Virus record (IMG/VR): IMGVR_UViG_3300045970_000732
Coordinates: 1 to 52,857 of that record
DNA from: a virus
Taxonomy: Duplodnaviria > Caudoviricetes
DNA length: 52,857 bases
Reading direction: 5' to 3' (one strand)
Under the pieces are notes generated by a model. The model had not been told where the DNA came from and did no database searches. It worked only from the letters and a program-made list of their open reading frames with translations. The position numbers and the translations under genes are program-made. Within the stretch, counting starts at the first letter, position 1; each line of letters begins with the position of its first letter. Below, piece after piece: positions 3,864 to 46,755 of the stretch.

Positions 3864-3871
3864 TATTTATC
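3864..3871 (-). promoter_or_regulatory. Late promoter variant GATAAATA (portal)
   Basis: TAAATA core 4 nt upstream of the portal ATG. Confidence 0.65.
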
Positions 3872-6819: not shown

Positions 6820-6851
6820 ATCGGCCCACGATGCCCCATAAAGGAAAACCA

Positions 6852-7679
6852 ATGATTGAGAATAACCCCCTGAAACAATATTTTCGCCACCCGGCGATTT
6901 ACCTGCGTCTACCAAGTCTAGGCGAGGGGTACGCAAGTGATGTTGTGGAACTACCGACTAACGGTGAGCTTCCTGTTTATCCAATGACCGCGCTTGACGA
7001 CATCGCCACGAAAACACCCGACGGACTGTTCAATGGATCGTCAGTTGTTCATATCATCAAGAGTTGCATCCCCGGTATCAAGGACCCTTGGAAGATTACA
7101 AGCGTTGATATCGATGCTGTTCTTGTTGCGATCCGGATCGCATCTAACGGAGACTCCATGGAGATATCATCTACTTGCCCGGCATGTGGTGAGGGTGAAA
7201 CATACATGGTGAAGCTCCCAGCGATTCTGGCACAAATCAAACCCGGAAATTTCACAACTGAATTTCCAGTCAATGATCTTATGATACAGTTCAAACCGCT
7301 TACCTACAAGGAAATGACCGAGGTTAGTATAGAACAAATGGACCTTCAGAGACTACTAGTTTCCATATCAAATATGGAAGATGTGACTGAAAGGGCCAAA
7401 AAGAGCAAAGAAGCGCTGGACGGTATAACCAAAATGACGATGCGTATCATAACAAAAACCATCGCTCATATCAGGACGCCGGCAGCCTTTGTTGACCAAG
7501 TTGATTTCATCAGTGAATTTTTACAAAACTGTGACAAGAAAACCTTTGAACAGATAAAGGACCATGCTACCGGTCTGAAGTCGATGTCAGAAATCAAACC
7601 AATTCATATCGTGTGTGATTCATGTAAACACGAATACGACCAACCATTCTCTGTTGACGCCGGCTCTTTTTTCGGCTAA
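6852..7679 (+). CDS. gp26: Baseplate hub / tail assembly protein (T4 gp26-like)
   Basis: NPLKQYFR.P.IY..LPS, PMTA.D, two CxxC pairs (CPAC, CDSC), ends ...SFFG. AAGGA RBS before ATG 6852. Confidence 0.75.
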   Translation: MIENNPLKQYFRHPAIYLRLPSLGEGYASDVVELPTNGELPVYPMTALDDIATKTPDGLFNGSSVVHIIKSCIPGIKDPWKITSVDIDAVLVAIRIASNGDSMEISSTCPACGEGETYMVKLPAILAQIKPGNFTTEFPVNDLMIQFKPLTYKEMTEVSIEQMDLQRLLVSISNMEDVTERAKKSKEALDGITKMTMRIITKTIAHIRTPAAFVDQVDFISEFLQNCDKKTFEQIKDHATGLKSMSEIKPIHIVCDSCKHEYDQPFSVDAGSFFG

Positions 7680-7726
7680 AGCTTTTACACCTTGACCATG
7701 AGGGTGTTCAAAAGCTGTTAGATGGA

Positions 7727-7903
7727 ATGGAAGCTGAGTGTAAAGCGATAAAGAAAAGCGCACTCAGTTTATCATGGTATATGCGCGGTGGTGCTCCGTA
7801 CGCAGACGTAATGAACATGTCTAGTGAGGAACGGGTTCTCATCACTGAAATCATCACCTCTAATCTCGAAACCACAAAGACCTCAAAACTACCGTTTTTC
7901 TAA
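7727..7903 (+). CDS. gp51-like baseplate hub assembly protein (58 aa; possibly made as a -1 frameshift extension of the gp26-like ORF)
   Basis: Not in the ORF track (<60 aa). MEAECKAIKKSALSLSWYMRGGAPYADVMNMSSEERVLITEIITSNLETTKTSKLPFF. The frame is open upstream through the end of the previous gene. Confidence 0.75.
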   Translation: MEAECKAIKKSALSLSWYMRGGAPYADVMNMSSEERVLITEIITSNLETTKTSKLPFF

Positions 7904-7969
7904 GTAGTTTTTATCAACCAAATGATGGTTACCCAGGTCGTGGTATGTCATTTATTCTGTTTTCTCTCT

Positions 7970-8692
7970 TAGTGCTGGCTTTCGCCAGCAAGACCATCGC
8001 TACGCTCGGTCTTTATTCTTTTTTATTCTGATGATAAGAGCAGATAATTGGGTTGTTATTAGTTGTTTACAGCCCCATCATGTTTCGGGAGTCCATGGTA
8101 GTGCTTATGCAAGCACTACCAAGGGGAAAGAATTCATGTTCCAATCGCCGTTGTTGTCTCTATCCCAAGTGATTGAGCGTCTATCATCACTTGCCACCGG
8201 TTGCTCTGTAAAGTTTTTATGGATCTGTAGTGACTACTAGCCGATGCCCCGCATCCACACCATATAGATGTGGTAGCTACACCAACCTTCGCCGCAACGC
8301 ACGTCCCACAGATTCAAGACAAAGTAGAGTTCTCTGTGGACTCGTTCAAGGTTCACCTGCCAGTGAGAGCCTTGTCGGTATTCCTAGCGCCTTATTTGTA
8401 TGGTGTCTCTCGACGGGCCATACGGACAATGAGTTAGTCTCGGACGCAAACCACCCCGGTGGTTACTACGCCTACAGTCTGCTCATCGGCACTAGCTATA
8501 CTCCAGAATCTGACGGCACAGCACAACCTGTACAACCTCAAGGAGAATCCCCATATGGGATCAACGGCGATAATACTGAACGAGATGGTCTCTGGTGTTT
8601 GGCGACAGGTTAGTGTCTAAAATTTGGCGACGGGCTAGCGTCTTGATATTTGGCGACAGGTTAGTGTCTTGATGTAATATGAGATGGTCTCT
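7970..8692 (-). ncRNA. Candidate large structured non-coding RNA (unassigned family)
   Basis: No credible ORF. TATAAATA at 8697-8704 points into it. Long-range stems 8144-8153/8562-8571 and 8199-8209/8518-8528. Local hairpins at 8096-8121, 8166-8193, 8305-8339, 8449-8464 and 7973-7990. Ends are estimates. Confidence 0.6.
7973..8027. terminator. Twin hairpins plus T-rich tract: likely terminator for the + transcript and/or 3' end of the - strand RNA
   Basis: TGCTGGC-TTTC-GCCAGCA (7 bp; GAAA loop on the minus strand), then AGACC..GGTCT, then TTATTCTTTTTTATT. Confidence 0.5.
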
Positions 8693-8693
8693 G
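8582..8693. repeat. Three 21-nt direct repeats bracketed by two identical 13-nt repeats
   Basis: TTTGGCGACAGGTTAGTGTCT at 8598-8618 and 8649-8669, variant TTTGGCGACGGGCTAGCGTCT at 8623-8643; GAGATGGTCTCTG at 8582-8594 and 8681-8693. Confidence 0.95.
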
Positions 8694-8696
8694 TGA

Positions 8697-8704
8697 TATT
8701 TATA
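8697..8704 (-). promoter_or_regulatory. T4-type late promoter TATAAATA with no protein gene downstream
   Basis: Exact consensus, oriented into the non-coding structured interval. Confidence 0.7.
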
Positions 8705-8728
8705 GCGATAAAACGAGTGAAAATATTT

Positions 8729-9178
8729 CTATTTCACCTTTTTCATCAGGATTTCATCGGGGTGTTCAACCGGGGGCAAAAACTTGACTCCGGAGATTAT
8801 ACCGTTGAAGTATTTTCTGGTTCCATCAGGCATCCTTGCCCGTAGAACTTCTTCTGTTATTTGGTAGCGAACCTCAGCATAAACCAGTGAGGCACGGGTC
8901 TTGTGTAGGGACTCGATTTCAAACCTGAACTTATCCTTCCCAACAAGCTCAATGGCTTTGTTGATGTGGGTGGACGAACTGGTATAGGTCTTCCAGTCAG
9001 ATTCTTTGATTACTTTTTTCTTATTCACTTTACCCTTGACTGCCTTTCGCAGGTGCTGGTGGAACTGTTTTTTGCCGATATATTCTTTGCCGGTGGCAAT
9101 CTCGGTGATCCGATAGATGAAACCGAACCATTCCGTGATGTCGAACTCATGCTTGAATTCCCAGTGACCTTTGTCCAT
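8729..9178 (-). CDS. Single-domain GIY-YIG nuclease-family protein (149 aa)
   Basis: FGFIYRIT..TGKEYIGKK..ESDWKTYTSSS..YAE..FNG.I; no appended DNA-binding domain. GAGG RBS and CATAAATA (9194-9201) upstream. Confidence 0.85.
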   Translation of the reverse strand: MDKGHWEFKHEFDITEWFGFIYRITEIATGKEYIGKKQFHQHLRKAVKGKVNKKKVIKESDWKTYTSSSTHINKAIELVGKDKFRFEIESLHKTRASLVYAEVRYQITEEVLRARMPDGTRKYFNGIISGVKFLPPVEHPDEILMKKVK

Positions 9179-9193
9179 AAAATACCCTCGCGG

Positions 9194-9201
9194 TATTTAT
9201 G
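9194..9201 (-). promoter_or_regulatory. Late promoter variant CATAAATA
   Basis: TAAATA core in the gap between gp46 and the GIY-YIG gene. Confidence 0.55.
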
Positions 9202-9215
9202 CGTGTGTATGGTTC

Positions 9216-11300
9216 TCATTCGTTTTCCGTATCCGCATCAGTTGAGTAGCTTGTGAACCCGTTGCTTTTCACAACTCGGAGAACCGAACTCACTCGTGAA
9301 GCCAGATCGTCCTTGTGACTGATCAACCATATGGATTTGTGCCGATTTCGTGAGAGGTCCTTTAGCACGCCAATGGAGTTTTCAACGCCCACTGAGTCGG
9401 TACCGTTATCAAGCAGTTCGTCAATGAACATGACATTGATTGGCTTGTATAGGTTCTCCCACACATCGCGGAATGCCCACGACAGCGCCAAGATAACGCG
9501 ATTCATCTCACCCCGTGACAGGTTATGGAAGTCAAGGTCACGCCCAAGCTCTGTGATCTGAACATTCAGGTCATTTTGGAACAGCACTTGATGTGGTAAA
9601 CCGATCTTGTCGAGGTAGTGGGTCATGCGCTGATTCAGGTATGACAGATTCTGGTCAATGATTTTCTTTCTGACGAACGAATCCTTGCTTGTCAGCAGGT
9701 CCAGTAGGAACTTTTGATGCTCCATGGTCTTGTTCATGGCGTTCATGGCGTCAAAAGACACAACCTGAATGGCCTTGGTCTCCATATCCACGATCTGTTC
9801 GGCATACGGGTCAGACTCCTGGTGTTTTGACTCAATCTGGCTGATAAGACTGTCAACCCGGGTGTTGTGTTCAACCGCCTCAACCTCAGTATCATACACC
9901 GTCTTTGGTGGTAGACCTACTGGGACAACCTCAGGCAGCAACTCGGCGATGTGTTCAGCATACGGGTCAACCTCGTTGACCTTCAGTTCAATCTTGGCTA
10001 ATAACGAATCGCTCTCGCTACTGTGGCGGATAGCCTCAGCTTCGGTGCGATAGTGAGTAGAGGGCATCTTGCCAAGCACGACCAGTTCAGCCTCAATCCC
10101 AGATACAAGCGCTTGCGCCTGTGTCAGGTGATTCACGGCGAACGCCAGTGAGGCCTCTTTAGCCTTGACCACATCAGTGTGTTTCTCATCATGGAGGTCC
10201 TGTCCGCAGGCATAGCACTTGTGTTCTTGCAGAGAGGCAAGCTCACCCTCAATCTTGACACGATCATTGGTGTAGCGAACGATATCGGCTCGTCCCCGTT
10301 TCAGTTCAATGTCCTGTGCGGCCTTGTCTCGCACCCGTTGGTTATACTCGGCAACCTCGCGATGTTTGATCAGTTCGGCATCAATGTCAACCCGGTGCAT
10401 TTTCACAGCATCAGCCCGCAGCACCGCAACATCCCGATCACGCTTCTCAGACCAGGCGGTCTGTCTGGCAACCAAGGCGGTGTAGGTGTCAAAGACACTC
10501 TTGTGTTGATTGTAGATCACCAAGTCTCTATGAGCCTGTAGCTCGGCAACAATGTCAATCTTTGAGAGGTCGTCGTATTTTGTGACAAGCGCCTGTAGAT
10601 CAGTCTCCTGCTTCGCCGCCCATAACCGTTGCCGCCTCTTCAGGTTTTCAATCTGTTCAGCAATACGGACATTGGCATCTTCAATCGCCTTCACCCGAAA
10701 CTCTTCGGTCTTGATGGCATCCTTACTTGTGGTCAGTAGACCCTTCACAATCTCGGCCTTCTCAGACAGGATGGTGATACCAAGCAGTTGTTCAATGATG
10801 TCTCGTTGATCACCAGCAGCCATTGCCAGAAACGGCTTGGTGTAGGTGTTCAGAGCAACGATGTGTTGGAACATATCCGCTGACATGTTGATGATCTTCT
10901 CAATCGCCGCCTGAGTTTCTTTGTTCTCTCCTTGAGCATCGTCTGGGGTTTTCAACAGGTTGCTGTTCACATAAAACTTCAGAATATTGGGACGGCGACC
11001 ACGCTCAATCTTGTATTCAACGCTGTCAATGCTGAACTCAAGCGTGACCAACATGCCCTTGGCATTGGTTCGGTTGATCAGGTTGTCCTTGCGGATACCG
11101 TTGATGGGCACACCGAAGAGGGCATATGACAGGCCTTGGATGAGCGAGGTTTTTCCGGTGCCGTTACGAGCACCATCACCACCCAAGTCCAGATTGTCCC
11201 CAAGGATCAGTGTCAGGTCTTGTCGGTCAAAATTGACCGCTTGCGTGATCGCCCCGATACTAAGGAAGTTCCGGAGGGTGATATTTTTTATTTTGATCAT
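9216..11300 (-). CDS. gp46: Recombination endonuclease ATPase subunit (T4 gp46 / Rad50 / SbcC-like)
   Basis: RNFLSIG, Walker A RNGTGKTS, Zn-hook CYAC, signature LSRGE, Walker B FIDELLD, H-loop LISH. Confidence 0.95.
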   Translation of the reverse strand: MIKIKNITLRNFLSIGAITQAVNFDRQDLTLILGDNLDLGGDGARNGTGKTSLIQGLSYALFGVPINGIRKDNLINRTNAKGMLVTLEFSIDSVEYKIERGRRPNILKFYVNSNLLKTPDDAQGENKETQAAIEKIINMSADMFQHIVALNTYTKPFLAMAAGDQRDIIEQLLGITILSEKAEIVKGLLTTSKDAIKTEEFRVKAIEDANVRIAEQIENLKRRQRLWAAKQETDLQALVTKYDDLSKIDIVAELQAHRDLVIYNQHKSVFDTYTALVARQTAWSEKRDRDVAVLRADAVKMHRVDIDAELIKHREVAEYNQRVRDKAAQDIELKRGRADIVRYTNDRVKIEGELASLQEHKCYACGQDLHDEKHTDVVKAKEASLAFAVNHLTQAQALVSGIEAELVVLGKMPSTHYRTEAEAIRHSSESDSLLAKIELKVNEVDPYAEHIAELLPEVVPVGLPPKTVYDTEVEAVEHNTRVDSLISQIESKHQESDPYAEQIVDMETKAIQVVSFDAMNAMNKTMEHQKFLLDLLTSKDSFVRKKIIDQNLSYLNQRMTHYLDKIGLPHQVLFQNDLNVQITELGRDLDFHNLSRGEMNRVILALSWAFRDVWENLYKPINVMFIDELLDNGTDSVGVENSIGVLKDLSRNRHKSIWLISHKDDLASRVSSVLRVVKSNGFTSYSTDADTENE

Positions 11301-12313
11301 AGCTTGGAGTAGATTTCCCGTAGAATTTTGGTGTCGATTGTCTTGCTTTCAATCTTGTCGATGCTCTCAATGATAATCTGGTCCACAGACTCAAACTTGA
11401 TATCACCTGTTGCCCCCTCGCCAGTGACCTGATCAGCCCTCATGGGTATCAGCGTCATTTCACGGATGTTGTATTCGGGTATGAGGGTGTCTCGTATGAA
11501 GTTCGCTTCTTCGTAACTGATGTCGATGTCCAGATGAACACGAGCATGGGTGTTGGGTAGGAGTAACTCTTTGGTTTTCTCCAAAACATCACTGAGCTTG
11601 AACACACGGTATATGGGTTGATCCGGCCATGAGTGAAACTCGGGTGTTTGTCCCCATTCCAGGATCATCATACCACGAGCATCGTCATTGGCATCAGCGT
11701 AGTTATGTGGGAAGGCGTTTCCGATATACCAGATGTTTTTCTTTGCTTGTCGCTTATGAAAGTGACCGCTGAATACTGTTCCAGTTGATCCAAAATCATC
11801 AAGACTGATAATACCATGATCGGGCATCACGATTTGGGCATTCATCAGGAAGTGGGGTAGCTCAAAATGACCAAAAGTGTATGTTGACTTGATCTTTTTG
11901 ACAGTGGCAAGATCATCACCTACCATCCATGGGCAGAACGAGACATTGCCATCGGTGATGATGTCATTCACCACCGTGACATTGGGTAGGTAACCAGCCC
12001 ATGCAACAGAATGGATGTCCCGCTTCTCACGATAGAACAGGTCATGATTTCCTGTGATGAAAAATACCTGAGAAAAGTTCGCATTCAGGATGTCAAGAGC
12101 CTGCATGGAGTAGTGAAGCGTTTGGATGTTGATAGCAGCCCGATGATTATGCCAATCACCACATACGATTGCGGTGTCGCATCCATTAGACTTGGCTGTT
12201 GTGACGAACCATCTGATGAACGCGACACAATCCTCGTTGTGAACCACACTGTTGCCCTTGAGTCCAAGATGAAGGTCCGTGAGAACCGCTGCTTTTTTGA
12301 ATAAATTTGCCAT
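11297..12313 (-). CDS. gp47: Recombination endonuclease nuclease subunit (T4 gp47 / Mre11 / SbcD-like)
   Basis: Phosphoesterase motifs TDLHLG, GDWH, GNHD, GHFE, SGHFH; ATGA-type coupling to gp46. Confidence 0.95.
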   Translation of the reverse strand: MANLFKKAAVLTDLHLGLKGNSVVHNEDCVAFIRWFVTTAKSNGCDTAIVCGDWHNHRAAINIQTLHYSMQALDILNANFSQVFFITGNHDLFYREKRDIHSVAWAGYLPNVTVVNDIITDGNVSFCPWMVGDDLATVKKIKSTYTFGHFELPHFLMNAQIVMPDHGIISLDDFGSTGTVFSGHFHKRQAKKNIWYIGNAFPHNYADANDDARGMMILEWGQTPEFHSWPDQPIYRVFKLSDVLEKTKELLLPNTHARVHLDIDISYEEANFIRDTLIPEYNIREMTLIPMRADQVTGEGATGDIKFESVDQIIIESIDKIESKTIDTKILREIYSKL

Positions 12314-13350: not shown

Positions 13351-13379
13351 TATTTATCACCTTTCCGTTACGATAAATA
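13351..13379. promoter_or_regulatory. Divergent late promoters GATAAATA (- at 13351-13358; + at 13372-13379)
   Basis: Two TAAATA cores at the strand switch between gp55 and the baseplate operon. Confidence 0.6.
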
Positions 13380-19491: not shown

Positions 19492-20142
19492 ATGGAAAAC
19501 GACACCTTCATCAACGTGGTCAATAACGCAGCCCCAACAAAAGTCCCGGGTCTCAGTGATATCACTACCGCTATCAAAGAGAAGCTAGGTGGAATGTCGG
19601 CCAGCCTGAATTCCCTGACTGGATCAGTAGGTGCGCTTGTAACCAAGGGCCTTGACGCATCAAAATTACAATCAGGCTTGACAGCACTGACAAATGCCGG
19701 CCTTGACCCGGCGGCACAGGCGAAATTGAAGGCGGCAATTGGTTCAATGGGCACCGGCATAAAACTACCTACAGCGGCTACAAACACGACAAATACATCC
19801 GAACAGAAGGCTGGCTTGTTCGCTCTTGCTGGTGCCAATGCGAAATTCGCGTTCCCCTCATCCGATAGCTTTCCGAAGCTTGGTGACGCCAAGATAAAAA
19901 TGCCGACTGCTGAAGAAGCAAAGAAATATGACGACAACAAGGCTGCGATTGCAGCGGCGGAGGAAGCCTACTTCAAACAGCGCATCACCACTGGCAACGC
20001 CCAACAAAAATATGAAGAGGCGAAAAATACACTGCCACAAGGCGATCCGACTGTGGAATCACTCAAATCAGTCTGGCTGGCCGAAAACGAAAAGCTCATA
20101 GCCGCTGAAAAGACGCTAAAAGCTCGTCAGGCCAACGCATAA
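19492..20142 (+). CDS. Hypothetical protein with C-terminal coiled coil
   Basis: 216-aa ORF abutting the previous stop. Confidence 0.6.
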   Translation: MENDTFINVVNNAAPTKVPGLSDITTAIKEKLGGMSASLNSLTGSVGALVTKGLDASKLQSGLTALTNAGLDPAAQAKLKAAIGSMGTGIKLPTAATNTTNTSEQKAGLFALAGANAKFAFPSSDSFPKLGDAKIKMPTAEEAKKYDDNKAAIAAAEEAYFKQRITTGNAQQKYEEAKNTLPQGDPTVESLKSVWLAENEKLIAAEKTLKARQANA

Positions 20143-20145
20143 ATA
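20138..20145 (+). promoter_or_regulatory. Late promoter variant CATAAATA (gp25)
   Basis: TAAATA core 4 nt upstream of the gp25 ATG. Confidence 0.6.
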
Positions 20146-24006: not shown

Positions 24007-24014
24007 GATAAATA
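24007..24014 (+). promoter_or_regulatory. Late promoter variant GATAAATA
   Basis: Intergenic, 21 nt upstream of the giant ORF. Confidence 0.6.
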
Positions 24015-24035
24015 CAATATAACGAGACTACTTAC

Positions 24036-27000
24036 ATGGCCCCAAGAATCAGAACCCTTACATTTTTGCCGGAAATCTTCAAGACCGAGACAAACACTCA
24101 GTTTTTACAAGCAACACTGGACCAGCTAACTGCCCAGCCTAATCTTGAGCGAATTGAGGGATATGTCGGTAGTAAGTTCGGGTATGGCGTTGACGCCACT
24201 AAGAACTATGTCCTTGAGAGCACCAAGCCGCGGACCGATTATCAGCTGGCCCCGGCAGTGGTATTCACCAAGACGAACAACAGCACTGCCCAAGACTTCA
24301 TCAGCTACCCTGGTATTATTGATGCTCTGAAGGCCGAAGGCGGAGTCACAAACGATCATTCTCGCCTGTTCGGCAGTCAAATATATTCCTGGGACTCGTT
24401 TGCTGACCTTGACAAGATCACAAACTTCAACCAATACTACTGGTTACCTGAAGGACCCGAAGCCGTTACTATTGCCTCGTCAATCGTGTATAGCCAGGCT
24501 GCGTATGAAGTTACCGACGAAGTTACGAGCTACGCCATCACTGTAGATGGTCAGGCAACTCCGGTAAATAATCCTAACATTACGCTGATGCGCGGTGGAT
24601 CGTACACATTCAAGGTGTCGCAGGGCTCGCCGTTCTGGATTCAAGGCTCACCTGGTCTTACTGGGTACAGCGCCACACAGACAAACCTACAGACCCGTGA
24701 TGTCGTCGGGGTCACAAACAACGGCGCGTCCACCGGTGAAATCACCTTTGATGTGCCAAGCAATACAGCGCAAAGCGAGTACACTTCACTGCCAAATCTC
24801 ACTTCGAACCCATCGTTTACTGACTTCATTCTTGACTTTGTAAGCACAACACCATTTGCTGATATAGACGGAAAATTAGTAAGTGAGTTTGTTAATGGTA
24901 TCGACGGGGTTACCTCGATCAATGAAATGAACATCATGTTCTATGGTACCGCTGATCACAAACTCAATTTTTATACGGTTCAGTATGACATAACGAGTCC
25001 TGGGTCGTATACCGACCCTGTTATTAGACTGATAGCAGGGGCACTTATTCCAGAAAATTATAGAATTACCGCTGCTTCAGGTCTTGAGTATTCCAATCGC
25101 TCCTTCGTCAAGAAACCATCTGCTGATGTGACACTGATTCCATATCTCAGCACAATCCTTGATACGCTATACTACCAAGACGGCACTTCACCGAGTAAAG
25201 TTGGTATCATCAAAATCATTGATAGTAACAGTACCCATCAATTGGACATCACTGATATCATCGGTCAGAAAGCATACACCTCTGTCAATGGTGTGACATT
25301 TACAAACGGGTTGAAAGTCACCTTCGTGGGTGATGTGTATCCATTGGAATACAAAAACACACCGTTTTATGTCGAGGGTGTTGGTACTGCAATTGAACTA
25401 CTACCAGTAACAGACTTCGTTGCCCCTGAATTATTCACCAGCGCATCATACATACCATTTGACACGCAGGCATTTGACATTGGCAACTTTGACAGTAGCC
25501 TATATATCCCGTTGACACCTGACTACTTCACCATTGCCAGAAATGCCTCAAGCAAGAATGCATGGTCCAGAAGTAATCGTTGGTTCCACGTGGATGTCAT
25601 AAATGCGACTGCCACTCACAACAACAAACCAGAGCTTGCCACACTATACACAACAACTGCGAACAAAGCAAAGCGCCCAATTATTGAATTTTATCCGAAT
25701 ATTCGGTTGTTCAATTCCGGTGTCGTCGGTAAGAACCCAGTGGACTTCATTGACTTCCGTAGCACAGATGCCTTTGCTGATTGTGCTGGAAAGACACGCT
25801 ATCATCCTGATGTGGCATCGTTCACCGACTCGACGGCAGTGATTGCCGCCGCAACCACAACCACAACAACCACAATAAACCTATCCACTTCTGTGATCAC
25901 GGGTTCACTAGTAGTGGGGCAGTCTGTTGCTGACGCTGCTAATGTACTTCCATCATCCGCAGTGATATCTGCGCTTACTACTGTGACCTCCGCCGGATTT
26001 ACAAGAATCACCGGTGCTACCGTAACCTGGTCCGGCGACCACACCATTAGCACAACGACAACCTCTATAGTGACAACGCCCGACAGTGCCAACAACTACG
26101 AGTTATTTGATGGCGCCCGCATCATCTTCGCAGCAGATACAAACGCCGGTGTCAGAAACAAGATTTACCAGGCTAGACTGTCTGTGACGACACCAGGTCA
26201 ACAATTCATCACCCTGACTGAAACAAACGACAGTGTTGTCAACGAAGATGATCAGACATTTGTGTATCGCGGATACCAATACGCCGGAAAAGATGTTCAT
26301 TATCTTGGTGGCTACTGGTCAGACGCTCAGCAAAAGTCAATGATAAATCAAGCACCACTGTTTGATGTTTTTGATGACAACGGGATAAGCTTTGGTGATA
26401 CGTCGGTATATGCTGGCTCATCGTTCAAGGGCACGAAACTATTCGCCTATGGCATCGGCAGCGGCACTGATGACTCGGTGCTTGGGTTCCCACTGCGCTA
26501 TGGCTCGGTCAACAACATCGGTGATATCAGCTTTGACATCTCACTAAACATAGACACCTTCTCTCATGTTGTGAACTCACTTCCAGTCACGCAGAAGGTG
26601 AACACCGGATTCGTCCATCATTCTCACTTGGGAATGGGTACGATAGAGCGTCATATTGGATGGCAGTCGGCAATCGCCAGAAGCGAACAGTATCAAATAT
26701 TTGACTTCCCATATTATGCCGCACTTCCTAAAGTCATGGTATGTGATGTTGCAGCTAAATCTGCTTCAGTAAGCAAGTGGCCCACAGTCAAGGTGTATAT
26801 GAACAATGTGTTGATGAACAGCACCGAATACACACTGACCATCGGCACTTCAACGACCACAGTGACTTTGCTCGGAACCATCACCACCGATACAGCTATT
26901 CTAGTGGCGGTGTTGAGCGATCAGGTCAGTGCCGTAGCATACTATGACATCCCTACCAACTTCAACAGCAATCCATTGAACGCTGAAATGCAGGTGGCAA

Positions 27001-30000
27001 ATGTCGGAGACATCCGCCGTCATTATCAGTCAATATTCCATAACTCCCCTGACATGACAGGCGACTTGTTCGGGTCCAATAACTACCGTGATCTACCGAA
27101 CCAAATACCATATGGAACGAGCATCATCCAAAACAGTGCGTCATTGGTGTTGCCTGGAATATTCCTTAGAAAGAAAAATCATAATCTGTTCAACGCTCTG
27201 TTGTTCAACAGCAGAGAATACCTGACATTCAAATCTCTGTTGACTAACACCGTTGCCAATAGCGATTACACTGTGTCATTGACACCGTCAGATATGCTTG
27301 ATGATGCGATGATTCAAATCACCGCTGCTAAATCCGATACTGGGTCATTCTTCTGGAGCGATATGCTACCGTCCAAGGCGGCATTCATCTCTCATAGCTA
27401 CTTCTTCGCAAACTCAATGGACACCAGCGTGTTCCCACTGAGTAGAATATACGATTACACCACGGCGAATTACCATGGGGTGTTGGTATATCTGACCAGA
27501 AAAATAGCAGGACGAGTCCGAACCATACAGCTTGTCCGAGACATAGATTACACCATTGAAACGAGCCTGCCTAATGTAACTGTCACACGCGATCTGGCAC
27601 CAGGTGATAAGATCACAGTCAAGGAATTCAACCAGACATACGGCAGTTATGTGCCGAACACGCCTACTAAGATGGGAATGTATCCAGCCTCAGTACCAGG
27701 TGTTGTGCTTGACGATACCTTCATGACTCCGACATATTTTATCCGCGGTCATGATGGTTCCCTCACGAAACTATACGGTGATTACGATTCAGTAAACAAC
27801 CTGCTTGTTGACTTCAGAGACCAGGTTCTACTAGAGTTTGAAAATCGCATTTACAACAACCTCAAAATTTCAGCCGTTCTTCCTATTAGTGAAATGGATG
27901 TGATGCCTGGTTTCTTCCGTGATACTCCATTCAGTTACGATGAAATGATCGAGGTTTACTCCCCGGCATTTCTGAACTGGGTTGGTCAAAACAGAATTGA
28001 TTACAAATCGCAAGTTTACTCTGTGACCGATGAGTTCACCTACAACTATTACCAGACAAAAACTAAAGCTGGTAATGTCACAATGACTCCAGGGTACTGG
28101 AGAGGTGTATATACATATCTCTATGACACCTGCAACCCACACACAGCACCATGGGAAATGCTTGGTCACCGAGACATGCCATCATGGTGGACCGCACACT
28201 ATGGAGCAGCCCCATATACCAGTGACAACTTGGTAATGTGGACTGATCTGGCAAACGGACTCGACTGGAACAACGGCGATCCTGTGACGATCACTTCGGC
28301 TATTCGCCCAACGCTCCTCAGTATGCTCCCTGTTGATTCCAGTGGCAACCTGTTATCCCCCGCTGCCTCAATGGTCGGCAACAGCATCAATGCCAGTTAC
28401 AACCGTGCCTGGAAAGTCGGCGACATGGGCCCTGCAGAGGCAGCATATCGTCGCAGCAGTTCATGGCCATTCGATCTGATGCGTATATTCGCCCTGACAC
28501 AACCTGCGCAGTTCTTCAATCTTGGTATTGATCTGGACACCTACAAATACTCAGCAGAATTCGATCAGAACCTGGTGAACAATCGTAGTCACCTTGTGTT
28601 TGGTAAGATTCAGGTATATGGTTCTGGCTTACCAAAGACAAGCTACCTCAACTGGATAGTAGATTACGAAAAACAAATGGGTATTGATGCGACAACAAGC
28701 GTTTCCGAATCACTGAGAAATATTGATGTTCGCTTGGTCTACCGCCTCGCAGGCTTCAGTGACAAAAACATGCTGAAGTTCTATGTTGAAAAGGGAACAC
28801 CAAATAACAAGAACAGTTCGTTGCTAATTCCAGATGACAGCTTCAATGTGTTGCTGTATGATAACCAATCGTTCAACCAAATAACATACAGTGGTGTCGT
28901 CATTCAAATCACCACCACCGGATTCAAGGTGTATGGTAATTCTCAGGCGTATGCTTACTTCAAGACGCTGACACCAAAAATCAATGGAAACTACGATAAA
29001 GTTACGATTGAAAACATCAGCGTACAGCTAGCCAACGACTATTTCTCTTCGGAGATGCTTGTGCCGTATGGCACCGAATTCGCCAGTGTTCAGGAAGTAT
29101 GCCAGTTCCTTGAGAACTATGGCCGTTATCTCGTTCAACAGGGCTGTAAGTTTGACCTCATTGAAAACGGTCTTGAGATTACATGGCGCCAAATGGTCGC
29201 TGAGTTCGTGTATTGGGTTCAACAAGGGTGGGAAGTTGGGTCTCTCGTAAATATCAACCCGGCCGCAACGAAATTGACCATTGACAAAGACAGCAATATC
29301 GTCCAGCCGCTCACCCTACAACAACAAAACTTTGTGCTGAATCAGGACCTGTATCCGATCCAAGCGTCTGATCTTGTTGTCACTCGTAATAGCACCCTAT
29401 TCTCAGTTAGCCCGCTGCGCCAAGGTGACACCATTAGTTATGGCGTGTTCAACGTCAGTGCTATAGAACACGGAGTCGTGTTTGATAATGTCACTGTGTT
29501 TGATGATGTGATTTACAACCTGTCAACAGGTCTGAGACAGTCACGCATCATCCTCAAAGGAACAAAAACCGCCGCTTGGGATGGGTCTGTTGATGCCCAA
29601 GGCTTCATACTGAATCAGGATAACATACTGGACTGGGATTCTAATACCAAGTACACCACTGGTTCTATTGTCAAGTACAAGAACAAATACTGGATCGCCA
29701 CCAAGATCATCCAAGCAGCATTGACATTCGAGGATACATCCTGGAAACAGACTGACTACAACACCATTCAGAAGGGCTTGCTGCCTAATCCAAGCACACG
29801 CTCATACGAGAGTATCCTGTATTATGATGCGAACAAAGCAAATCTGGAGAACGATGCCGACCTGTTGAGCTTCTCTCTAATCGGTTATCGCCCGCGCGAA
29901 TATCTGAACATCGCTGACTTGTCGGATGTTACTCAGTTGAATGTATATCGGAATCTGATCAAGAACAAGGGAACTGCCATTGCAGCAAACACCTTCAAGG

Positions 30001-33000
30001 GTTCTACACTCTCACAAGACACCATTGACTATGACATATATGAGAACTGGGCCATAAAGACATCATCGTTTGGTGGCGTAATGAACAGCAACTTCATTGA
30101 TGTTCGGTTGAATGAGTCGCTGATGACTGGAAAACCGTCGATCATCGGGCTTACAAACGGTAGCGTAATAGCAGGAACTGAACAAGCAGTGCCAATCCAA
30201 TCACTGTATAACTACGGTAGAGTGGTCACTGATGTGAATGTGCTGCCAACACTACAGGGCTTGTCACATACCGCTATTCTGCCAGACGCTGGATATGTCA
30301 ACTTTGATGATGTGAAAATGTCATCATATTACTATTCGGGAATGTCCGTAGCCAAAGACGCCGCAGGAACCGTTATCCCGTTGTCGCAACTTTATGTTCG
30401 TGATTATGTCTGGTTGGCAAATCATCTTGGCACATGGCAGGTCTACACTCCGGTATCGCTTGGTCAAATTACTACTGCGAAAAATAATCTGAACGGCACA
30501 GCGACAATCACTTTTGCTAAGGCACATTCGCTGGCAAAATATCAACCATTCGCCATTGTCGGCCTCTCCAATGTCGTTGACGGTTATCACACCGTGGCAA
30601 CGATCATCGACGGTTATCGTCTGACTATCAATCTGAATCTGCCATCAACGATCACTTCAGTCACTGGTGTGGCGGTTGGTTTTGCGTTCCAAAAACAGCG
30701 CGTTGATACGCCGGCAAACATCGGTGATCTTCCGTTGGCAGAAGCCGAGTTCATCAAGAATAAGGTGTGGGTTGATGAAGGAATTGACGGTAACTGGGCA
30801 GTCTATCGTAAGAGCATCAATTATCTGCACGAATCATCAATGACGATTGATGCCACCGGTCAATCATATGGCAGTGCTGTCGCATATACTACCAGAGGCG
30901 GCTACCTAATTGGCAATTCCGTCGCAAAAACGATCCAGCGCTACACATTCAATCCACTTGATAACACTTATGGACTGACTGAAACTATCACTGGTACCGA
31001 CGGCTTTGGTAAAATCATTGCTCACGCTGATAACAGGTTTGTTGTCGCATCTGATGCCACTGTGACGGTATACGAGCTTGAAGTCTCGCAACTGGTCAAC
31101 AGTCTAACACCAATACAAACGATTGCGTCCGCTGGTGTCACCAGCATTGCCCTGTCGGGTGATACGAATTGGTTATACTTGGCTAACGCCACCGGCATCA
31201 CGCTGTATCACTTCAATGGGACCACATACATATCGTCAACAGTGTTGTCAACACTCGCTGGTCAGGCATACGGAAAGTCAATCACCACTAACTACTATGG
31301 TGACATGCTCGTTGTTGGCGCGCCATATAAGGCAAACGGATCATTCGCACAGTGCGGTGCTGTATATGTCTACAGCAGATTTGAACAACGCCACGAGGTA
31401 CTCTACGGATACACTTCGTATGATGTCCTTCTGGCTGCTACACAAGGCACCGATGCCACTCTCGTTGATGTCTATGTCAACGGCACAGAAATATCTACCT
31501 ATACTCTGGCAGCAGGTAAGGTTACTATTACATCGTCGGTGACTGCCGGCGATATTGTTCGTGTAAGCGGCAACTCTCTTGTACTGGTTCAGGAATTTGC
31601 TTCCCTTGAGGCTGCTCACACCGGAGTACAATTCGGTAATTGTGTCACCGCAAATCAATCCGGAAACGAAATTCTCGTTGGTGCTCCGTTTGAACTTGTG
31701 ACACAAACAAGTGAAGGTGCCGTATACAGATTTACGGATGGTGGTGCTGACTACGGAACAATCATCGGCACCACAGCAGCAAATGTACTGACTCAGGGTA
31801 CTCTATTGATCAATGGTTATGCCGTTACGATCCCAGTTGGTAACGCCACGGCGGCAGCGACAGCAATCAACTTTGCCAAGATCACTAATGTTCAGGCAGT
31901 AGCCGACTCCGGTATACTCACAATAGGACTGATCAATCTGGCTCTGGCGCAAGCAACAGACAAGCTCACGCTAACAGCCACAACCACTGCGCTCATTCAA
32001 GAACTGGGAATACAGGTTTATACACCGACACAGACCATTACCAATATCCATTCATCTGGTGCCACTCAGTTCGGCTCGCTGGTCAAGTTCAACGATGCTG
32101 ATTCTATAGTCATATCGGCTCCATCGTCTACCAGATTCTCAGGCACAATGTTTGACTTCACAGACGATGAACACGACAACGACACCGTGTTTGATAACAA
32201 CACCACTCGTTTTGTGGATGAATTCAAGAACGCCGGCAGTATGTATATGTATGATTACCTAGGTGTTTACAACGAGACCCTTTCTAAGCCAGGGAAATTC
32301 GTGTACGCTCAGAGTGTCAATGATATTGGCGCTTCCTACGGTCTACAACCAATGTATGGCTACTCCGTTGACTTTCATGATAACCGTGTTGTCGTGGGTA
32401 CTCCGGGACAGCTAAATGGCACAGTGACAACCTATGTGAACGCCACTGGGGTTCGTGACTGGTCTATATTCCGCGCACCAAGTGCCATTGTAGATATCAA
32501 CCGCATTCAGGACATTCAGTTATACAGCGCAGAAACAAATACCACACTGGATCATCTGGACTTCATTGATCCATTACAAGGCAAGATCCTTGGCGCTGCC
32601 CGTGAAAATATTGATGTTGTGTCTAACATAGACCCAGCAGGATACACAACCGGAGTCAAGGGAAACATGGTGTGGGGGAATATGAATGTCGGTCAAACAT
32701 GGTTTGACACCTCAACGACACTCTTTGTCAACTACCACCAAGACGACCTCGTTTACAACAGCAAACACTGGGGAACCGTGTTCCCAGGTAGCGATGTCGC
32801 CGTATACACATGGGTCTCAAGTTCAACACCCCCGGCATCTTACCAAGGCCCAGGCACTCCGTATGATGTCACCAAGTATTCTATTGACTATGTAGTATCA
32901 GCAACAGGAACGCTTGTGCCATTCTATTGCTTCTGGGCACGAAATACCAATGTTGTATATACAAAAGCAGGCAAAACATTGTCTGATTCAAACGTCCAAT

Positions 33001-36000
33001 CGTACATCGCATCCCCGCTAAACTCGGGCGTGTCTTACTTTGCCCCATTGCTACCGAGCGCATTCGCCCTTTATAACTCGGCTGAAAATATCAACCATAC
33101 TGATTCTATCCTTCACGTTGGTTATGCCAACGGTGTGTCTGATGATGTGTCACATTCCCTACACGATCTGATTCGCACCGGGAACAAAGAAGACTTCCTT
33201 CCAGGTCTGCCATCTGAGTCAACAAATCATGTCCCTGAATCATTGTATGATCGGTTACTTGATAGTCTCTGTGGTGTAGATACATTCGGGGCAGTCGTTC
33301 CTAACCCGTATCTGCCTAAGCCTGTACAATATGGCATATTGGCACGACCTAACCAGAGTATGTTCATTGACCGCTTCGGCGCCCTCAAGAACTATCTGAT
33401 GTATGCCAACGCAGTGATGCTACAATATCCAATAGCAGAAACGAAACAACCGTCGATGCTTATGGCATCCGGACCATTCTACGACACAACCAAATACTGG
33501 AGTTATGTGGATTGGTGGGCAACTGGTTATAGCAGCGCAACAAAAGCAATCGTTCAAGTGGCGCAATACGCCGACCTCAGTCCGCTTGCTGCGTACCCGG
33601 GGCTAGTAGCTCAGGTGGCATCAAATGGTGATGGTAAATGGGAAACATACATTTACGATACGGCATGGACTCGAATCGGCCTCCAATCAGGCACGATTGA
33701 GTTTAGCAGCCTGTTGTGGGATTATGCCGCAGGCGGGTTTGGCTTCTCAAATAACTTCTTTGATACCACCCCATTCTCGGAATTCCCATCTGAAGAAACA
33801 CGGCAGATTGTTCGCTCACTCACTGAAGAAATCTACATTGAGGAACTTGCGATACATCGTAACAAGAGCTTGATTCTGTTGTTTGAATACATACAGAACG
33901 AAACTACCGGAGCCAACAACTATCTTCCATGGCTGAACAAGACATCGTTTGTTGATGTCAGTCACACCATCCGTGAATTGAAACCAAGCAAGGTGTTCCA
34001 GTCAGACAACAATGAGTTCCTTGAAGGTTATCTCAATGAAGTGAAACCATACCATGTGGTTATCAAAGAGTTCCTGTTCAAGTACACGAACCTGGATACC
34101 TTCACTGGTGTCATGACCGACTTTGATTTGCCGGCGACATTTGATGCCACTATAGAAAAATTCGTGTCTCCTGCTCTGGTGAACACACTCACCGGAGAGA
34201 CAAACGAATACCTTGCGACCGATCCAATCTGGACCACCACTCCATACTCTTCCTGGTATGCTGAACACGGGCTGAGCCTCACTGGTCTCCCAGACCAATC
34301 ACTGACTACCCTGTCATCCTATATCGCCCTGAACAGCGCAGCATTCTCCGTGGATAACGCCTATGGCTTCCCGACATCAGGCATCATCAAGGTAGATGAC
34401 GAGCATATCGGTTATTCAGTGGTTGATCGCAACGCCAGCACCCTCTCCGGTCTGTCCCGCGGAGCCAATGGCACCACAGTCACCACTCACGTCCCAGGCA
34501 CCGCAGTGATCATGGACCTTCCACCAGTCATCCTGCTTGACGGCGGCCGCGAATACGTTGAGCCACCGAAGATCATCGCCTATCTGGATCCGTCAACCCA
34601 CGCAGCACCATTGCGCCCTGCAGTGCTACAGGCTGTGATGAACCTAGACCAGATCCTACGCATCGACGTAATAGACCCGGGCCTTGGCTATGATGCCCTA
34701 CCTGAGATTTTGATCGACCCGGCAAAGACGGCAGTCATCCCAAGCTCCAGTACAAACACCAACATCGTGTCAAGCAACATCACCATGACAGTGCCATGGT
34801 TCGTGACCGGCGACATGGTCCGCTACGAAACAGGTGCCGGCACAACAGCCATTGGCGGCCTCGTCTCCGGTCAATACTACTACGTAGGCGTTCTTGAAAC
34901 GACACCTAAGCTTGTCTTGGCGCTATACAGCCGATACGCTGATGCCGTGAATAACCTCCGTCGTGTGTCACTGACGACTCTTGGCACCGGTCCAGAACAC
35001 CTATTCCATCTAACGGCCCGTGCCATTGCTGTCGCCACAGCAGAACCGATTCGTGAAAATCGCATGACGTTGCGTTTTGACAGAAGCACCTACAAATCTC
35101 ACATCCAGGATTGGACCTCTGGCGGGCTGTACGGTTCATTCTTCGCAGGAACAATGAACAACTCGGTGACCATCTCAAGTTCGTCGATATCCATGGAGAG
35201 CAGCCAGCCCTCGATTGACAACGTCCTGTCAAGCGGAGCAGGTGTCACGTTTGAAATCGTCAGTTCAACCTCGACAAACGACCTCACATGGTCGTCACGC
35301 ACAAGAATATTGACTGCCACGACATCAGCAGGCATCGTCACCATTGCGAACGCCCCCGGCGGCCCAGCAGGCTCCCCTGATGTGCTTCGTCCATGGGGAC
35401 CAGGTGATGTCGGCCCAATGGTTGGCTTCTACGTTGGAATGCCGATCAAGTTCAATGGTGGCATATTCGGCGGCATCGTCCCAGAAACGATCTACTATGT
35501 CGGCACCATGCTGACAGCTACAACATTCACCCTATGGACAACGCCAACGGGTGGAATACCGACCCTGACAGACACTGCCACTGGTGTTGCACCATGTTCG
35601 TTGTTCGTCGGCGAACTGACCAACACAGCGGTTGTCACCATTGACTACCCGGGTATCCTGCAAGTCACTGCGACCACATCAACCACTAACGCGATCACCG
35701 TGCCGATGACACTCAGCGGACAAGGCGGCACAAAATATTTCTATGTCGGCCTGCCGGTCTATTTCACCGGACCAACATTCGGTGGTATCGTGGAGAACGA
35801 GCAATACCATGTTACTACCATCATTGACCGAGAGCACTTCACCCTATCAAAAACGGATGGCCCATTGACACTGCCTATCATCAGCACCACAGATGCCGGC
35901 GACTTGATCAACCTCGCGGACCTTCACACGACCTACGGCCTGTTCGTAGACGACCGCGTGATATTCACAGACATGCGAGTGAACGCCCCTGACATGATCA

Positions 36001-45700: not shown

Positions 45701-46732
45701 ATGGCTTACTCACAATACGGACTTGTAGCGGCAACTGATTACAACTACCTGATCAGTGCTTATCTTATTCCGATAGGACCAGACTGGGTTGTCAGTCCTA
45801 ACCCATTCAATAGTATCTGGGCCGCAGGAAATCAAAACAAGGGATACGGTCAAGGAGTATCCCTGACCAATGTTGCCGCTGGTTCTACCGTGTCAGCGGC
45901 ATCCTGGGCTGACCTGGTCAATAAAGTAGCCATCATGGCCGAGCACCAAGGCACCGCAATCACAGCCATCACCTCCCCGGCCACTACGAACCCAGTAACA
46001 TATCTACCGGCGCTCACAGACAACCTGGCCCTTGTGTATGCGAACCGAATGAACGTGGCAGCACAGGGCTCATCTGTGCCGAACACTGCGAGTAGCAACT
46101 TGACCTGGTCAGACTACCTCACATTCACGCACACGGTGACCTTCAATCCGGTAATCACCGGTTGGGGCACGATATCCGGAGCTGACGCAGCCCGTTACTT
46201 TTTCAACTCAGGTGGCCAACTAGCCCTGACATTCTCCCATGCAACCGCAACAGCAGGTATCAATCTACTTCTGAACAACCTGGCAATCGCTGCCGGAACC
46301 ATCGTCCTATCTTCCCCGACTTCGGGGACGATGAGCATCGCCGGCACGCCATTTACCGGTGTCACCAAGGTCGGAGGCTCCGGCACAGCAACAGTGAATA
46401 CCAACGCCGGCTACTACGCCCTCAACAACAGCGAGACTACCCTGTTCAACCAATACGCATCTACTGGTCCTGCAGGTTACCTGGGAACACGGCTGGTCAT
46501 AACAGCCCGGACTAATGGCACCCAGGGCCTTAACGGTGACACGGGAAGCGTGATCACAATCACATCAACCTTTGACGAGATGCCAGGTGGACTAATCCCT
46601 GCCACTGGAACCACAACCACACTCAGTATCCGACCACCAGCAACCATCACCGGCTTCACCAATGTTTGGGGAACCCCAACAGTATCGTCAGTCATCGCCG
46701 GCGCGCAAGGTGGCGAAGTCATCGCCCCATAA
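45701..46732 (+). CDS. Virion structural / fibre-associated protein
   Basis: MAY..G...A.DYN, GYGQ, ARYFFNSGG motifs; Thr/Gly-rich; AGGA RBS. Confidence 0.6.
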   Translation: MAYSQYGLVAATDYNYLISAYLIPIGPDWVVSPNPFNSIWAAGNQNKGYGQGVSLTNVAAGSTVSAASWADLVNKVAIMAEHQGTAITAITSPATTNPVTYLPALTDNLALVYANRMNVAAQGSSVPNTASSNLTWSDYLTFTHTVTFNPVITGWGTISGADAARYFFNSGGQLALTFSHATATAGINLLLNNLAIAAGTIVLSSPTSGTMSIAGTPFTGVTKVGGSGTATVNTNAGYYALNNSETTLFNQYASTGPAGYLGTRLVITARTNGTQGLNGDTGSVITITSTFDEMPGGLIPATGTTTTLSIRPPATITGFTNVWGTPTVSSVIAGAQGGEVIAP

Positions 46733-46755
46733 ATATTCCGGGCAAGACCTGACGC

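Follow-up and report, generated by a model that had tools for sequence, protein, structure and literature searches.

Few large RNAs with a conserved tertiary fold are known, and such RNAs have time and again opened up new biochemistry, as in the cases of RNase P, tmRNA, guide RNAs, and self-assembling RNA cages. Two such families, GOLLD and ROOL, have sizes of roughly 600-800 nt. Origin RNAs, represented by the ColE1 RNA II pre-primer and by the transcripts of the T4 origins oriF and oriG, are invoked below for the logic of one reading of our data. From the IMG/VR database, 8495 candidate structured RNAs have been reported, which measure 67 nt on average (range 29-151 nt; Fremin, Bhatt and Kyrpides 2023, PMC10690425). 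Here, we analyze a stretch of 52,857 nt (referred to as the window), a 52.9-kb fragment of the IMG/VR phage record IMGVR_UViG_3300045970_000732, which is rated 15% complete. In a non-coding gap of the window between genes resembling gp51 and segE, a structured non-coding RNA of about 720 nt, transcribed late in infection from the minus strand, had been proposed from the sequence of the window (the original prediction). We consider it very likely that this gap carries a real structured RNA gene on the minus strand. The RNA family is previously undescribed and is a trait of a large clade of uncultured freshwater giant phages with genomes of roughly 350 kb.

The gap is shared with distant relatives. 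Six viral contigs, which encode a gp26 that is only 46-52% identical, have a gap at the equivalent place, and their gap DNA matches positions 8089-8386 of the window with E-values from 1e-18 to 2e-8 (nhmmer). One 48-nt stretch of the gap is 85-94% identical in these relatives, and the RNA gene is better conserved than the proteins around it. At least 119 viral contigs contain a 25-base pattern derived from the 48-nt stretch, and at least 120 metagenome contigs contain a pattern for the 3' hairpin. Judging from the record names, the metagenome matches listed are mostly from lake or other freshwater assemblies, with a few marine ones. There are 207 loci that contain both ends of the element, and these correspond to 167 distinct copies with an effective number of 96.

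The base pairing was evaluated on alignment A2 of the 96 distinct copies and comprises 70 pairs in 12 helices, including two pseudoknots. Helices Ha, Hvar, and P-E were misaligned by MAFFT and were left out of the column counts; they are assigned by inspection. Of 6686 cells, 98.5% are Watson-Crick or G-U pairs, compared to 86.6 +/- 0.2% after shuffling, and compensatory changes affecting both sides are found in 41 of the 70 pairs, compared to a shuffled mean of 30.2. None of 500 shuffles reached either value. Cells with a double change number 846 (shuffled mean 230) and the covariation score is 0.372 (0.138 when shuffled). When the 3' partner was slid by 1-3 columns as a control, 31-45% of the cells were paired and 64-103 double-change cells were obtained. 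The top pairs in an analysis of mutual information with average-product correction, performed with 96 and then with 167 copies, are nearly all Watson-Crick pairs; the pairs of pseudoknot PK1 are among them. The conservation and covariation expected from the original prediction are thus present among the relatives.

A consensus of 91 pairs is obtained with RNAalifold on each of the strands. The minus-strand consensus has 355 G-U and 50 A-C cells, while the plus-strand consensus has 188 and 155, respectively. The consensus energies are -160.9 (minus) and -147.9 (plus), and the minus-sense fold is the more stable one in 83 of the 96 cores. The excess of G-U over A-C and the more stable minus-sense folds indicate that the RNA is read from the minus strand.

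A protein gene was rejected. Frames were anchored on four invariant motifs and followed for 30 codons to either side, and none of them is open in more than 28 of 162 copies. The copy lengths are evenly spread when taken modulo 3 (58, 50, and 59 copies), and the two longest open reading frames (ORFs) of the gap have no Pfam match. The non-coding nature of the interval, as originally proposed, is thus borne out.

The RNA is also outside of the known Rfam families. When Rfam 15 was searched with the gathering score, there was no match in the whole window. At E-values up to 10, the region 7700-8900 gave only two chance-level matches (a Dictyostelium snoRNA and REN-SRE), and 12 relatives also gave only two chance-level matches, both outside the families considered (GOLLD, ROOL, OLE, HEARO, RNase P, group I/II introns, tmRNA, 6S, riboswitches). 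The whole window is devoid of tRNA and tmRNA genes. A full-text literature search found no description of the gap RNA. The view of a large, multi-branched, pseudoknotted minus-strand RNA that is absent from Rfam is supported by the covariation, by the G-U and A-C counts, and by these scans.

Several known classes were considered individually and rejected. An intron within the nuclease gene that precedes the RNA in most relatives is excluded by the PDDEXK_15 domain, which is complete before the RNA (profile positions 2-161 of 164), and a group I intron joining two exons by the lack of a conserved reading frame after the RNA. P-A, PK2, and P-F can be laid out like P3, P7, and P8 of a group I intron, although the 5' strand of PK2 is inside P-D, a layout that group I introns are not known to show. 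No RNase P model matched at E-values up to 10 in the window and 12 relatives; the strings around P-A, in what we take as a lead only, loosely resemble two conserved core regions of RNase P RNA. A template RNA of a reverse transcriptase was rejected because PF00078 is absent from five of five RNA-bearing genomes, three of which are rated 100% complete, whereas control genomes gave matches. A guide RNA of the adjacent nuclease (HEARO or omega-RNA type) is incompatible with the window and three further loci (L083, L092, L125), which keep the RNA without the PDDEXK gene. That hairpin P-G is an inserted mini-element was rejected because no hairpin-less copy is found among loci reaching that far, and an alternative UACAG/CUGUG pairing because ACUACAG is invariant where H3 is replaced.

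The elements of the RNA, its flanks, and the neighboring genes are listed in Table 1.

Table 1. Elements of the gap RNA and neighboring genes in the window (RNA elements are listed from 5' to 3' in minus-strand sense; changes on both sides of a pair were counted in the 96 distinct copies)
Feature	Position	Strand	Remarks
gp47	11297-12313	minus	named by likeness to relatives
gp46	9216-11300	minus	
SegE-type GIY-YIG endonuclease gene	8729-9178	minus	
Non-coding gap with RNA gene	7904-8728		
Late-type promoter-like motif TATAAATA / ATAAATA	8697-8704 (ATAAATA 8697-8703)	minus	specific to the window
Leader	8582-8693	minus	three tandem 26-nt repeats (8593-8618, 8618-8643, 8644-8669)
P0, 5' strand of closing helix	8562-8571	minus	pairs with 8144-8153 (10 bp)
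Ha, 5' hairpin	8546-8562	minus	sequence variable, position conserved
5' domain	8501-8545	minus	H1 around H3
H1 clamp CUCC/GGAG	8542-8545 with 8501-8504	minus	0/4 pairs changed on both sides, invariant
H3 hairpin	8516-8533 (8528-8533 with 8516-8521)	minus	0/6 pairs changed on both sides, invariant
Hvar	8381-8500	minus	window-specific 120-nt branched insertion at tip; alignment gap in relatives
Central multi-helix junction	8195-8380	minus	P-A encloses P-B, P-C, and P-D/P-E
P-A	8376-8380/8195-8199	minus	3/5 pairs changed on both sides
P-B	8370-8374/8347-8351 and 8364-8366/8353-8355	minus	4/5 and 2/3 pairs changed on both sides
P-C (8301-8345)	8343-8345/8301-8303 and 8334-8340/8305-8311	minus	10/10 pairs changed on both sides (plus one single apical pair)
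P-D	8294-8298/8200-8204	minus	2/5 pairs changed on both sides
P-E	8226-8293	minus	window-specific 68-nt insertion
PK1, pseudoknot of P-C apical loop	8317-8322 with 8154-8159	minus	5/6 pairs changed on both sides, 98.3% of cells paired
PK2, pseudoknot of P-D internal loop	8221-8224 with 8162-8165	minus	beside invariant ACUACAG; 3/4 pairs changed on both sides, 98.4% of cells paired
P-F hairpin (8166-8193)	8183-8193/8166-8177	minus	10/11 pairs changed on both sides
3' module	8078-8140	minus	R1 (8134-8140), P-G, R2 (8078-8084)
P-G hairpin	8096-8121	minus	1/10 pairs changed on both sides, mostly invariant
Linker	8015-8077	minus	A+T-rich, unconserved
3' tail hairpins	7973-8014	minus	Hx and Hy
Hx	7990-8014	minus	tandem G-A motif, GNRA-type loop in minus sense
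Hy	7973-7990	minus	GAAA loop; GNRA or UNCG loop across the family
gp51-like ORF	7727-7903	plus	58 codons
gp26-like T4 baseplate-hub gene	6831-7679	plus	PF12322

All complementarities listed in the original prediction exist in the window, and a part of them proved to belong to the family structure. The hairpins at 8096-8121, 8166-8193, and 8305-8339 are the conserved helices P-G, P-F, and P-C. The perfect 10-bp outer stem (8144-8153 with 8562-8571) is present as P0. In relatives, 5-6 pairs are possible when G-U is included, and the matched leader/partner duplex has -4.79 kcal/mol compared to -4.54 +/- 0.09 kcal/mol when permuted, which supports the existence of P0 in relatives weakly. The inner stem proposed for 8199-8209 and 8518-8528 can be formed in the window (10 of 11 pairs, with one G-U that exists only on the minus strand and one G-A mismatch) and had to be abandoned, as it clashes with the covarying helices P-A and P-D and with H3, and as its half in the H3 loop is not conserved. 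The RNA is pseudoknotted, as had been suspected, but the pseudoknots that covary are PK1 and PK2. The two crossing pairings that had been proposed (8225-8230/8472-8477 and 8240-8246/8484-8490) are found in the window and involve insertions that only the window has. A 7-bp match between the two insertions is close to chance (roughly 0.5 expected by our own estimate).

Because of these two lineage-specific hairpin insertions (in Hvar and in P-E), the core is larger in the window than elsewhere. From the 3' hairpin to the 5' motif it spans 453 nt, the longest of all copies, compared to 303-370 nt in 82 relatives. The conserved core as a whole has about 330 nt in relatives and about 500 nt in the window (roughly 8075-8575), so that the scale of about 720 nt does not apply to the family. 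Both insertions fold independently and extend the tips of hairpins, which is where a fold under selection would be expected to tolerate them. The one in Hvar, a hairpin that has about 20 nt in relatives, has a folding energy of -42.1 kcal/mol by itself, is closed by a stem of 8 bp, and contains the previously noted hairpin 8449-8464. In Ha, mismatches that are A-C on the plus strand become G-U on the minus strand. In 49 divergent metagenome copies, other hairpin sequences take the place of H3, with CUCCUUGAG..CUGGAG being kept. The strand that follows P-F in the 8154-8193 module holds the 3' strands of PK2 and then of PK1. P-G has a few G-U or compensatory variants; among the five loci that lack the exact word of its 3' arm, four (L012, L079, L100, L116) have compensatory or G-U variants and one (L081) ends before the hairpin.

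The position of the RNA was compared by tblastn in 126 sources and is constant: it is located between a nuclease gene, which is downstream of gp47-gp46, and the convergent gp51-gp26. Genes gp47 and gp46 are upstream of the RNA in every locus reaching that far, and gp51 and gp26 converge from the other side in all loci long enough to show them. The nuclease gene codes for a PDDEXK_15 protein (PF24608, E about 1e-25) in 119 of the 126 sources, and in 115 of these the match covers the full length, with its end directly before the RNA. In the other four (L026, L078, L096, L109), a SegE gene precedes a PDDEXK match without its N-terminal part. In four sources (the window, L083, L092, L125), the SegE gene replaces the PDDEXK gene, and three loci are too short to show the nuclease gene. 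In the clade of the window, the PDDEXK_15 gene has been displaced by this SegE-type GIY-YIG homing-endonuclease gene, which looks like intron-less homing beside an RNA gene that is highly conserved. The nuclease ORF of relatives extends to within about 10-25 nt of Ha; the placement of the RNA only a few bases after the stop codon of this gene suggests co-transcription with gp47-gp46. Larger records that carry the RNA have 223-367 kb, with three of them rated 100% complete, and the RNA is single-copy in five of five. The structural-gene arm of the window contains one ORF that alone spans about 19 kb (about 6,340 codons; 24035-43067, plus strand).

The RNA was not detected in prokaryotes or in cultured phages. 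The hairpin pattern had no match in the prokaryote species genomes of GTDB, and phages in GenBank had no similar DNA when queried with the window copy and with one relative. The nearest gp46 proteins of GenBank phages are less than 40% identical (PA5oct, Phosso, Atu_ph07). Covariance model R1, which was built from the central multi-helix domain, found nothing in these three phages, with E = 1e-30 for the positive control, and gave only 12.5 bits (E = 0.9) for Vibrio phage 2.275.O. In PA5oct (L247, record 74404-74417), gp46 and a convergent structural gene are only 12 bases apart, which indicates that the RNA locus is a trait of the uncultured clade rather than of every jumbo phage with a gp46. 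In Sinorhizobium phage Phosso, a 1-kb unannotated stretch (L248 8411-9424, record 229759-230772) adjoins a Holliday-junction resolvase gene near gp46; covariance model R1 has no match in it. No RNA sequencing run carrying the stretch was found, the only strong matches being two pond-metagenome DNA runs.

Upstream of the RNA, the tandem repeats of the leader each contain a small hairpin (GACA..UGUC or GACG..CGUC) with compensatory differences among the repeats, and they are bracketed by two 13-nt repeats (8582-8594, 8681-8693). Among 100 distinct upstream regions of relatives, 92 have a small hairpin GNC-ACNAN-GNC in one or two copies at -121 to -56, within the unconserved C-terminal tail of the nuclease ORF. 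The middle pair of this hairpin is A-U in 94 copies and G-C in two, and the other strand has no match. As the G-C variant alters the encoded amino acids, and as the motif persists as non-coding DNA where SegE replaced the nuclease gene, the hairpin is a nucleic-acid signal.

A T4-type late promoter has TATAAATA about 10 nt before the start, and the motif should be enriched ahead of the late genes of the phage. This 8-mer had been the basis for postulating late transcription and is indeed found ahead of the RNA (Table 1), but it is not enriched, with two occurrences in the window compared to 0.96 expected, a number equaled in 29 of 100 shuffles. ATAAATA occurs 13 times compared to 5.0 expected (none of 100 shuffles reached 13) and is found in 9 of 30 regions upstream of ORFs, where 0.37 would be expected. 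This shorter motif is probably the late-type promoter core of the phage, unlike the exact T4 8-mer. The ATAAATA(C) sites include 1756-1762, 2073-2079, 3864-3870, 9194-9200, 13351-13357, 13373-13379, 20139-20145, 24008-24014, and 46729-46735. When the list of sites is compared to that of the ORFs, most sites are 10-40 nt upstream of ORF starts and in the same orientation.

Downstream of the core, 40-90 unconserved nt precede Hx and Hy. The linker has an A+T fraction of 0.70 compared to 0.58 in the core (113 loci). Of 96 distinct flanks, 95 contain the tail module, whose minus-sense fold is the more stable one in 85 of these (-17.5 versus -15.0 kcal/mol); the GAAA-loop hairpin of the original prediction (7973-7990, minus sense) is a part of it. 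Hx consists of short Watson-Crick steps that alternate with tandem G-A pairs, with several stacked layers in some relatives, and this build is unusual for a mere terminator. As a T-run follows Hx on the plus strand, Hx probably also terminates the gp26-gp51 transcripts. Between the gp51 stop and Hy (about 7938-7957, minus strand) there is a conserved word, GAUAAAUGAAUAGUUACGG in many relatives and AAUAAAUGACAUACC in the window, which resembles the promoter core ATAAAT.

The 3' module has a further peculiarity, as words R1 and R2 are identical within a genome and differ between genomes. The word is AACAUGA in the window, GGCAA in most copies, and GGUGAA, GUUGAA, GCAAGUA, or GGCAUG elsewhere. 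The longest word common to both flanks has a mean length of 5.36 when matched, compared to 5.01 +/- 0.05 when permuted (maximum 5.20 in 200 permutations) and to 3.90 in an inverted-repeat control. One column pair of R1/R2 co-varies, being G/G in 105 and U/U in 35 of the 167 copies, and it does so in several subgroups. No third RNA column that tracks this pair was found, and no complement of R1/R2 was found on the RNA strand within +/-1.5 kb. The opposite DNA strand always co-varies with the R words, so that R1 RNA could anneal to template DNA at R2. The same word thus occurs twice on the RNA-like strand, beyond the family consensus, as in a pre-primer RNA.

The three complete genomes (G001, G002, G003; about 350-367 kb) each have one clear minimum and one maximum of the cumulative GC-skew, like a bacterial replichore pair. 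In all three, the RNA is inside a zone of about 7 kb between two large, oppositely oriented gene arms. The RNA hairpin, the cumulative GC-skew minimum, and the coding-strand minimum are at 55.4, 47, and 50.1 kb in G001, at 98.5, 108, and 104.3 kb in G002, and at 13.3, 20, and 19.1 kb in G003. The distance of the RNA from the cumulative GC-skew minimum is thus 5-10 kb, and that from the coding-strand minimum is 5.3-5.8 kb. The largest non-coding stretch of the turning zone in G001 is taken up by the RNA, whose transcription is directed toward the arm of rising skew. The three genomes share their gene order, so that the position amounts to roughly one observation.

Our preferred reading, which we hold tentatively, is that of an RNA or ribonucleoprotein (RNP) that acts in trans, depends on its shape, and is made together with the early/middle recombination operon. 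Read-through of this operon followed by trimming would yield the RNA in most phages, with the small conserved hairpins just upstream as candidate sites for processing or for a protein. In the phage of the window, it may in addition be made from the added late-type promoter ahead of the leader. The RNA would act as a stable, autonomously folded molecule through its three-dimensional shape, as a protein-binding RNP core or decoy; it would not be an antisense RNA, a leader, or simply a terminator. A binding or active surface could be formed by the invariant junction bases (ACUACAG, UUACAG, GGAAUA, CUCCUUGAG), and P-G, Hx, and Hy could protect the 3' end.

Several points weigh against this reading. 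Its strand and ends are deduced from the logic of the sequences. The single-sequence folding goes only moderately beyond chance: with 20 shuffles, the region 7960-8700 has z-scores of -3.69 (minus) and -2.00 (plus), and with 100 shuffles, the core 8075-8575 has z-scores of -2.35 (minus) and -3.61 (plus), so that folding is better than that of shuffled controls, as had been anticipated, but the values are modest and do not favor the minus strand for the core. ATAAATA is upstream of the RNA in only one of 100 distinct family copies, that of the window itself; there is no conserved promoter, and late transcription cannot be upheld as a family trait. Sigma-70-like sites occur at chance frequency and a canonical terminator was not found. 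The adjacent nuclease cannot be an obligate partner, as the clade of the window has lost it. A model of trans action also leaves unexplained why R1 and R2 are identical within each genome and why the locus is at the turning zone of GC-skew and gene orientation.

These last two features are explained by only one model, in which the RNA would be the pre-primer (R-loop) RNA of the principal replication origin of the phage. We regard this as conceivable though on balance unlikely. The core, folded during transcription, would let R1 anneal to template DNA at R2, with P-G looped out, and a persistent RNA-DNA hybrid seeded in the A/T-rich linker would prime leading-strand synthesis toward the long arm of co-oriented genes. 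The origin could be switched off by the late gp26-gp51 transcripts, which are antisense over the tail hairpins. The concerted R1/R2 words with their G/G-U/U column pair and without a third column fit with this, as do the co-varying opposite DNA strand, given the lack of a complement on the RNA strand, the A/T-rich linker directly after R2, the location inside the turning zone in three of three complete genomes, with the largest non-coding stretch there in G001, and transcription into the arm with rising skew. Yet the synteny of these genomes limits the weight of the position, the skew may just follow gene orientation or transcription, and the point of divergence is about 5 kb away from the RNA. 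Known primer RNAs do not need a core with two pseudoknots and many invariant junction bases, T4-type phages replicate mostly by recombination, and the RNA-DNA hybrid is purely predicted. The G-U variants of P-G favor an RNA hairpin over a DNA cruciform.

Less is to be said for the other readings. That the pseudoknotted core is a ribozyme, which cuts itself from the operon transcript or processes other RNAs, is improbable in our view: the compact multi-helix junction, the two pseudoknots, and the many invariant unpaired bases would suit a ribozyme, and an RNA directly after a coding sequence needs to be released, but no Rfam ribozyme matched at E-values up to 10 in the window and 12 relatives, no conserved candidate cleavage site was identified, and the helix order, by our own comparison, is unlike that of group I introns or RNase P. 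We see only a slim chance for a riboswitch-like sensor, which would decide between a stop at Hy and antisense read-through into the late genes gp51-gp26. In its size and complexity, the core is like large aptamers; it is upstream of terminal hairpins that face convergent late genes, and it contains repeated invariant words (CACUAC twice, GGCAA three times) that could mean alternative pairings. This contrasts with the absence of Rfam riboswitch matches in the window and 12 relatives, with the unconserved nucleotides before Hx/Hy and the lack of a canonical terminator, and with the fact that switching of GGCAA with P-D fails in genomes that have other R words. Equally slim is the chance that the RNA is a passive 3' element, either a stabilizing 3' untranslated region or an insulator between convergent units, without a function of its own. 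Its place at the 3' end of an operon between convergent genes and its tail hairpins, which resemble a bidirectional terminator pair, are what such an element would have, but a terminator or stabilizer has no need of two covarying pseudoknots and of invariant junctions in some 330 nt, and the clade of the window has kept the RNA after loss of the upstream gene and has added its own promoter-like motif. It is highly improbable, and was already disfavored by the above results, that the element functions only as DNA (as a protein, recombination, or packaging site) or that it is a protein gene, either short or decayed. The arms of P-G form an almost invariant 12-bp inverted repeat between direct repeats and homing-endonuclease genes have been inserted next door, as might be seen at a DNA site. 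Compensatory changes and the excess of G-U over A-C on one strand are RNA signatures, however, and a coding function is opposed by the lack of a conserved reading frame and of Pfam matches in the local ORFs.

Irrespective of the function, the case for the RNA is a strong one, as it is single-copy, strictly syntenic, better conserved than the neighboring proteins, and has two covarying pseudoknots, to which is added an unusual 3' module with two flanking words that show concerted evolution. The RNA thereby offers itself as a clean target for determining a structure and raises the question of why giant phages need an RNA machine. If the RNA were a pre-primer, it would provide a sequence marker for the replication origins of giant phages, which are essentially unmapped, and would be without precedent among tailed phages as a conserved origin RNA with a tertiary structure.

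When compared to known systems, our study shares IMG/VR as a data source and a covariation-based logic with the survey by Fremin, Bhatt and Kyrpides (2023, PMC10690425). Given the size range stated there, the whole gap RNA cannot be one of those candidates, while single hairpins of it may be among them. GOLLD and ROOL (Nature 2025, PMC12286853) are likewise large, structured, pseudoknotted, often carried by phages and prophages, and common in lake metagenomes. PK1 pairs a loop with a distant single strand and could in principle be intermolecular, as in self-assembling RNAs. Unlike GOLLD and ROOL, the gap RNA has no match to their covariance models and has a different neighborhood, without tRNA genes. 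Its core is also smaller than the sizes given above for these RNAs. Cobalamin and lysine riboswitches and the glmS ribozyme similarly have a multi-helix junction that is locked by long-range loop pairings and has invariant junction bases; the gap RNA differs from them by the absence of an Rfam match, by having no gene downstream on the same strand, and by its position at the 3' end of an operon. The pRNA of phage phi29 is, like the gap RNA, a phage-encoded structural RNA with a co-varying loop pairing, with trans action being only proposed for the gap RNA. There is no sequence or model similarity between the two, the gap locus is not near packaging genes in the window, and, to our knowledge, T4-type packaging motors need no RNA. 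Compared to ColE1 RNA II and the T4 origin transcripts, the core of the gap RNA is far more conserved and more knotted, and the T4 origin RNAs are not known to be structured. What the gap RNA has in common with these is a folded transcript with an upstream segment capable of pairing with the DNA template further along, an A/T-rich stretch thereafter, and a location at a turning zone of gene orientation and GC-skew, beside recombination genes.

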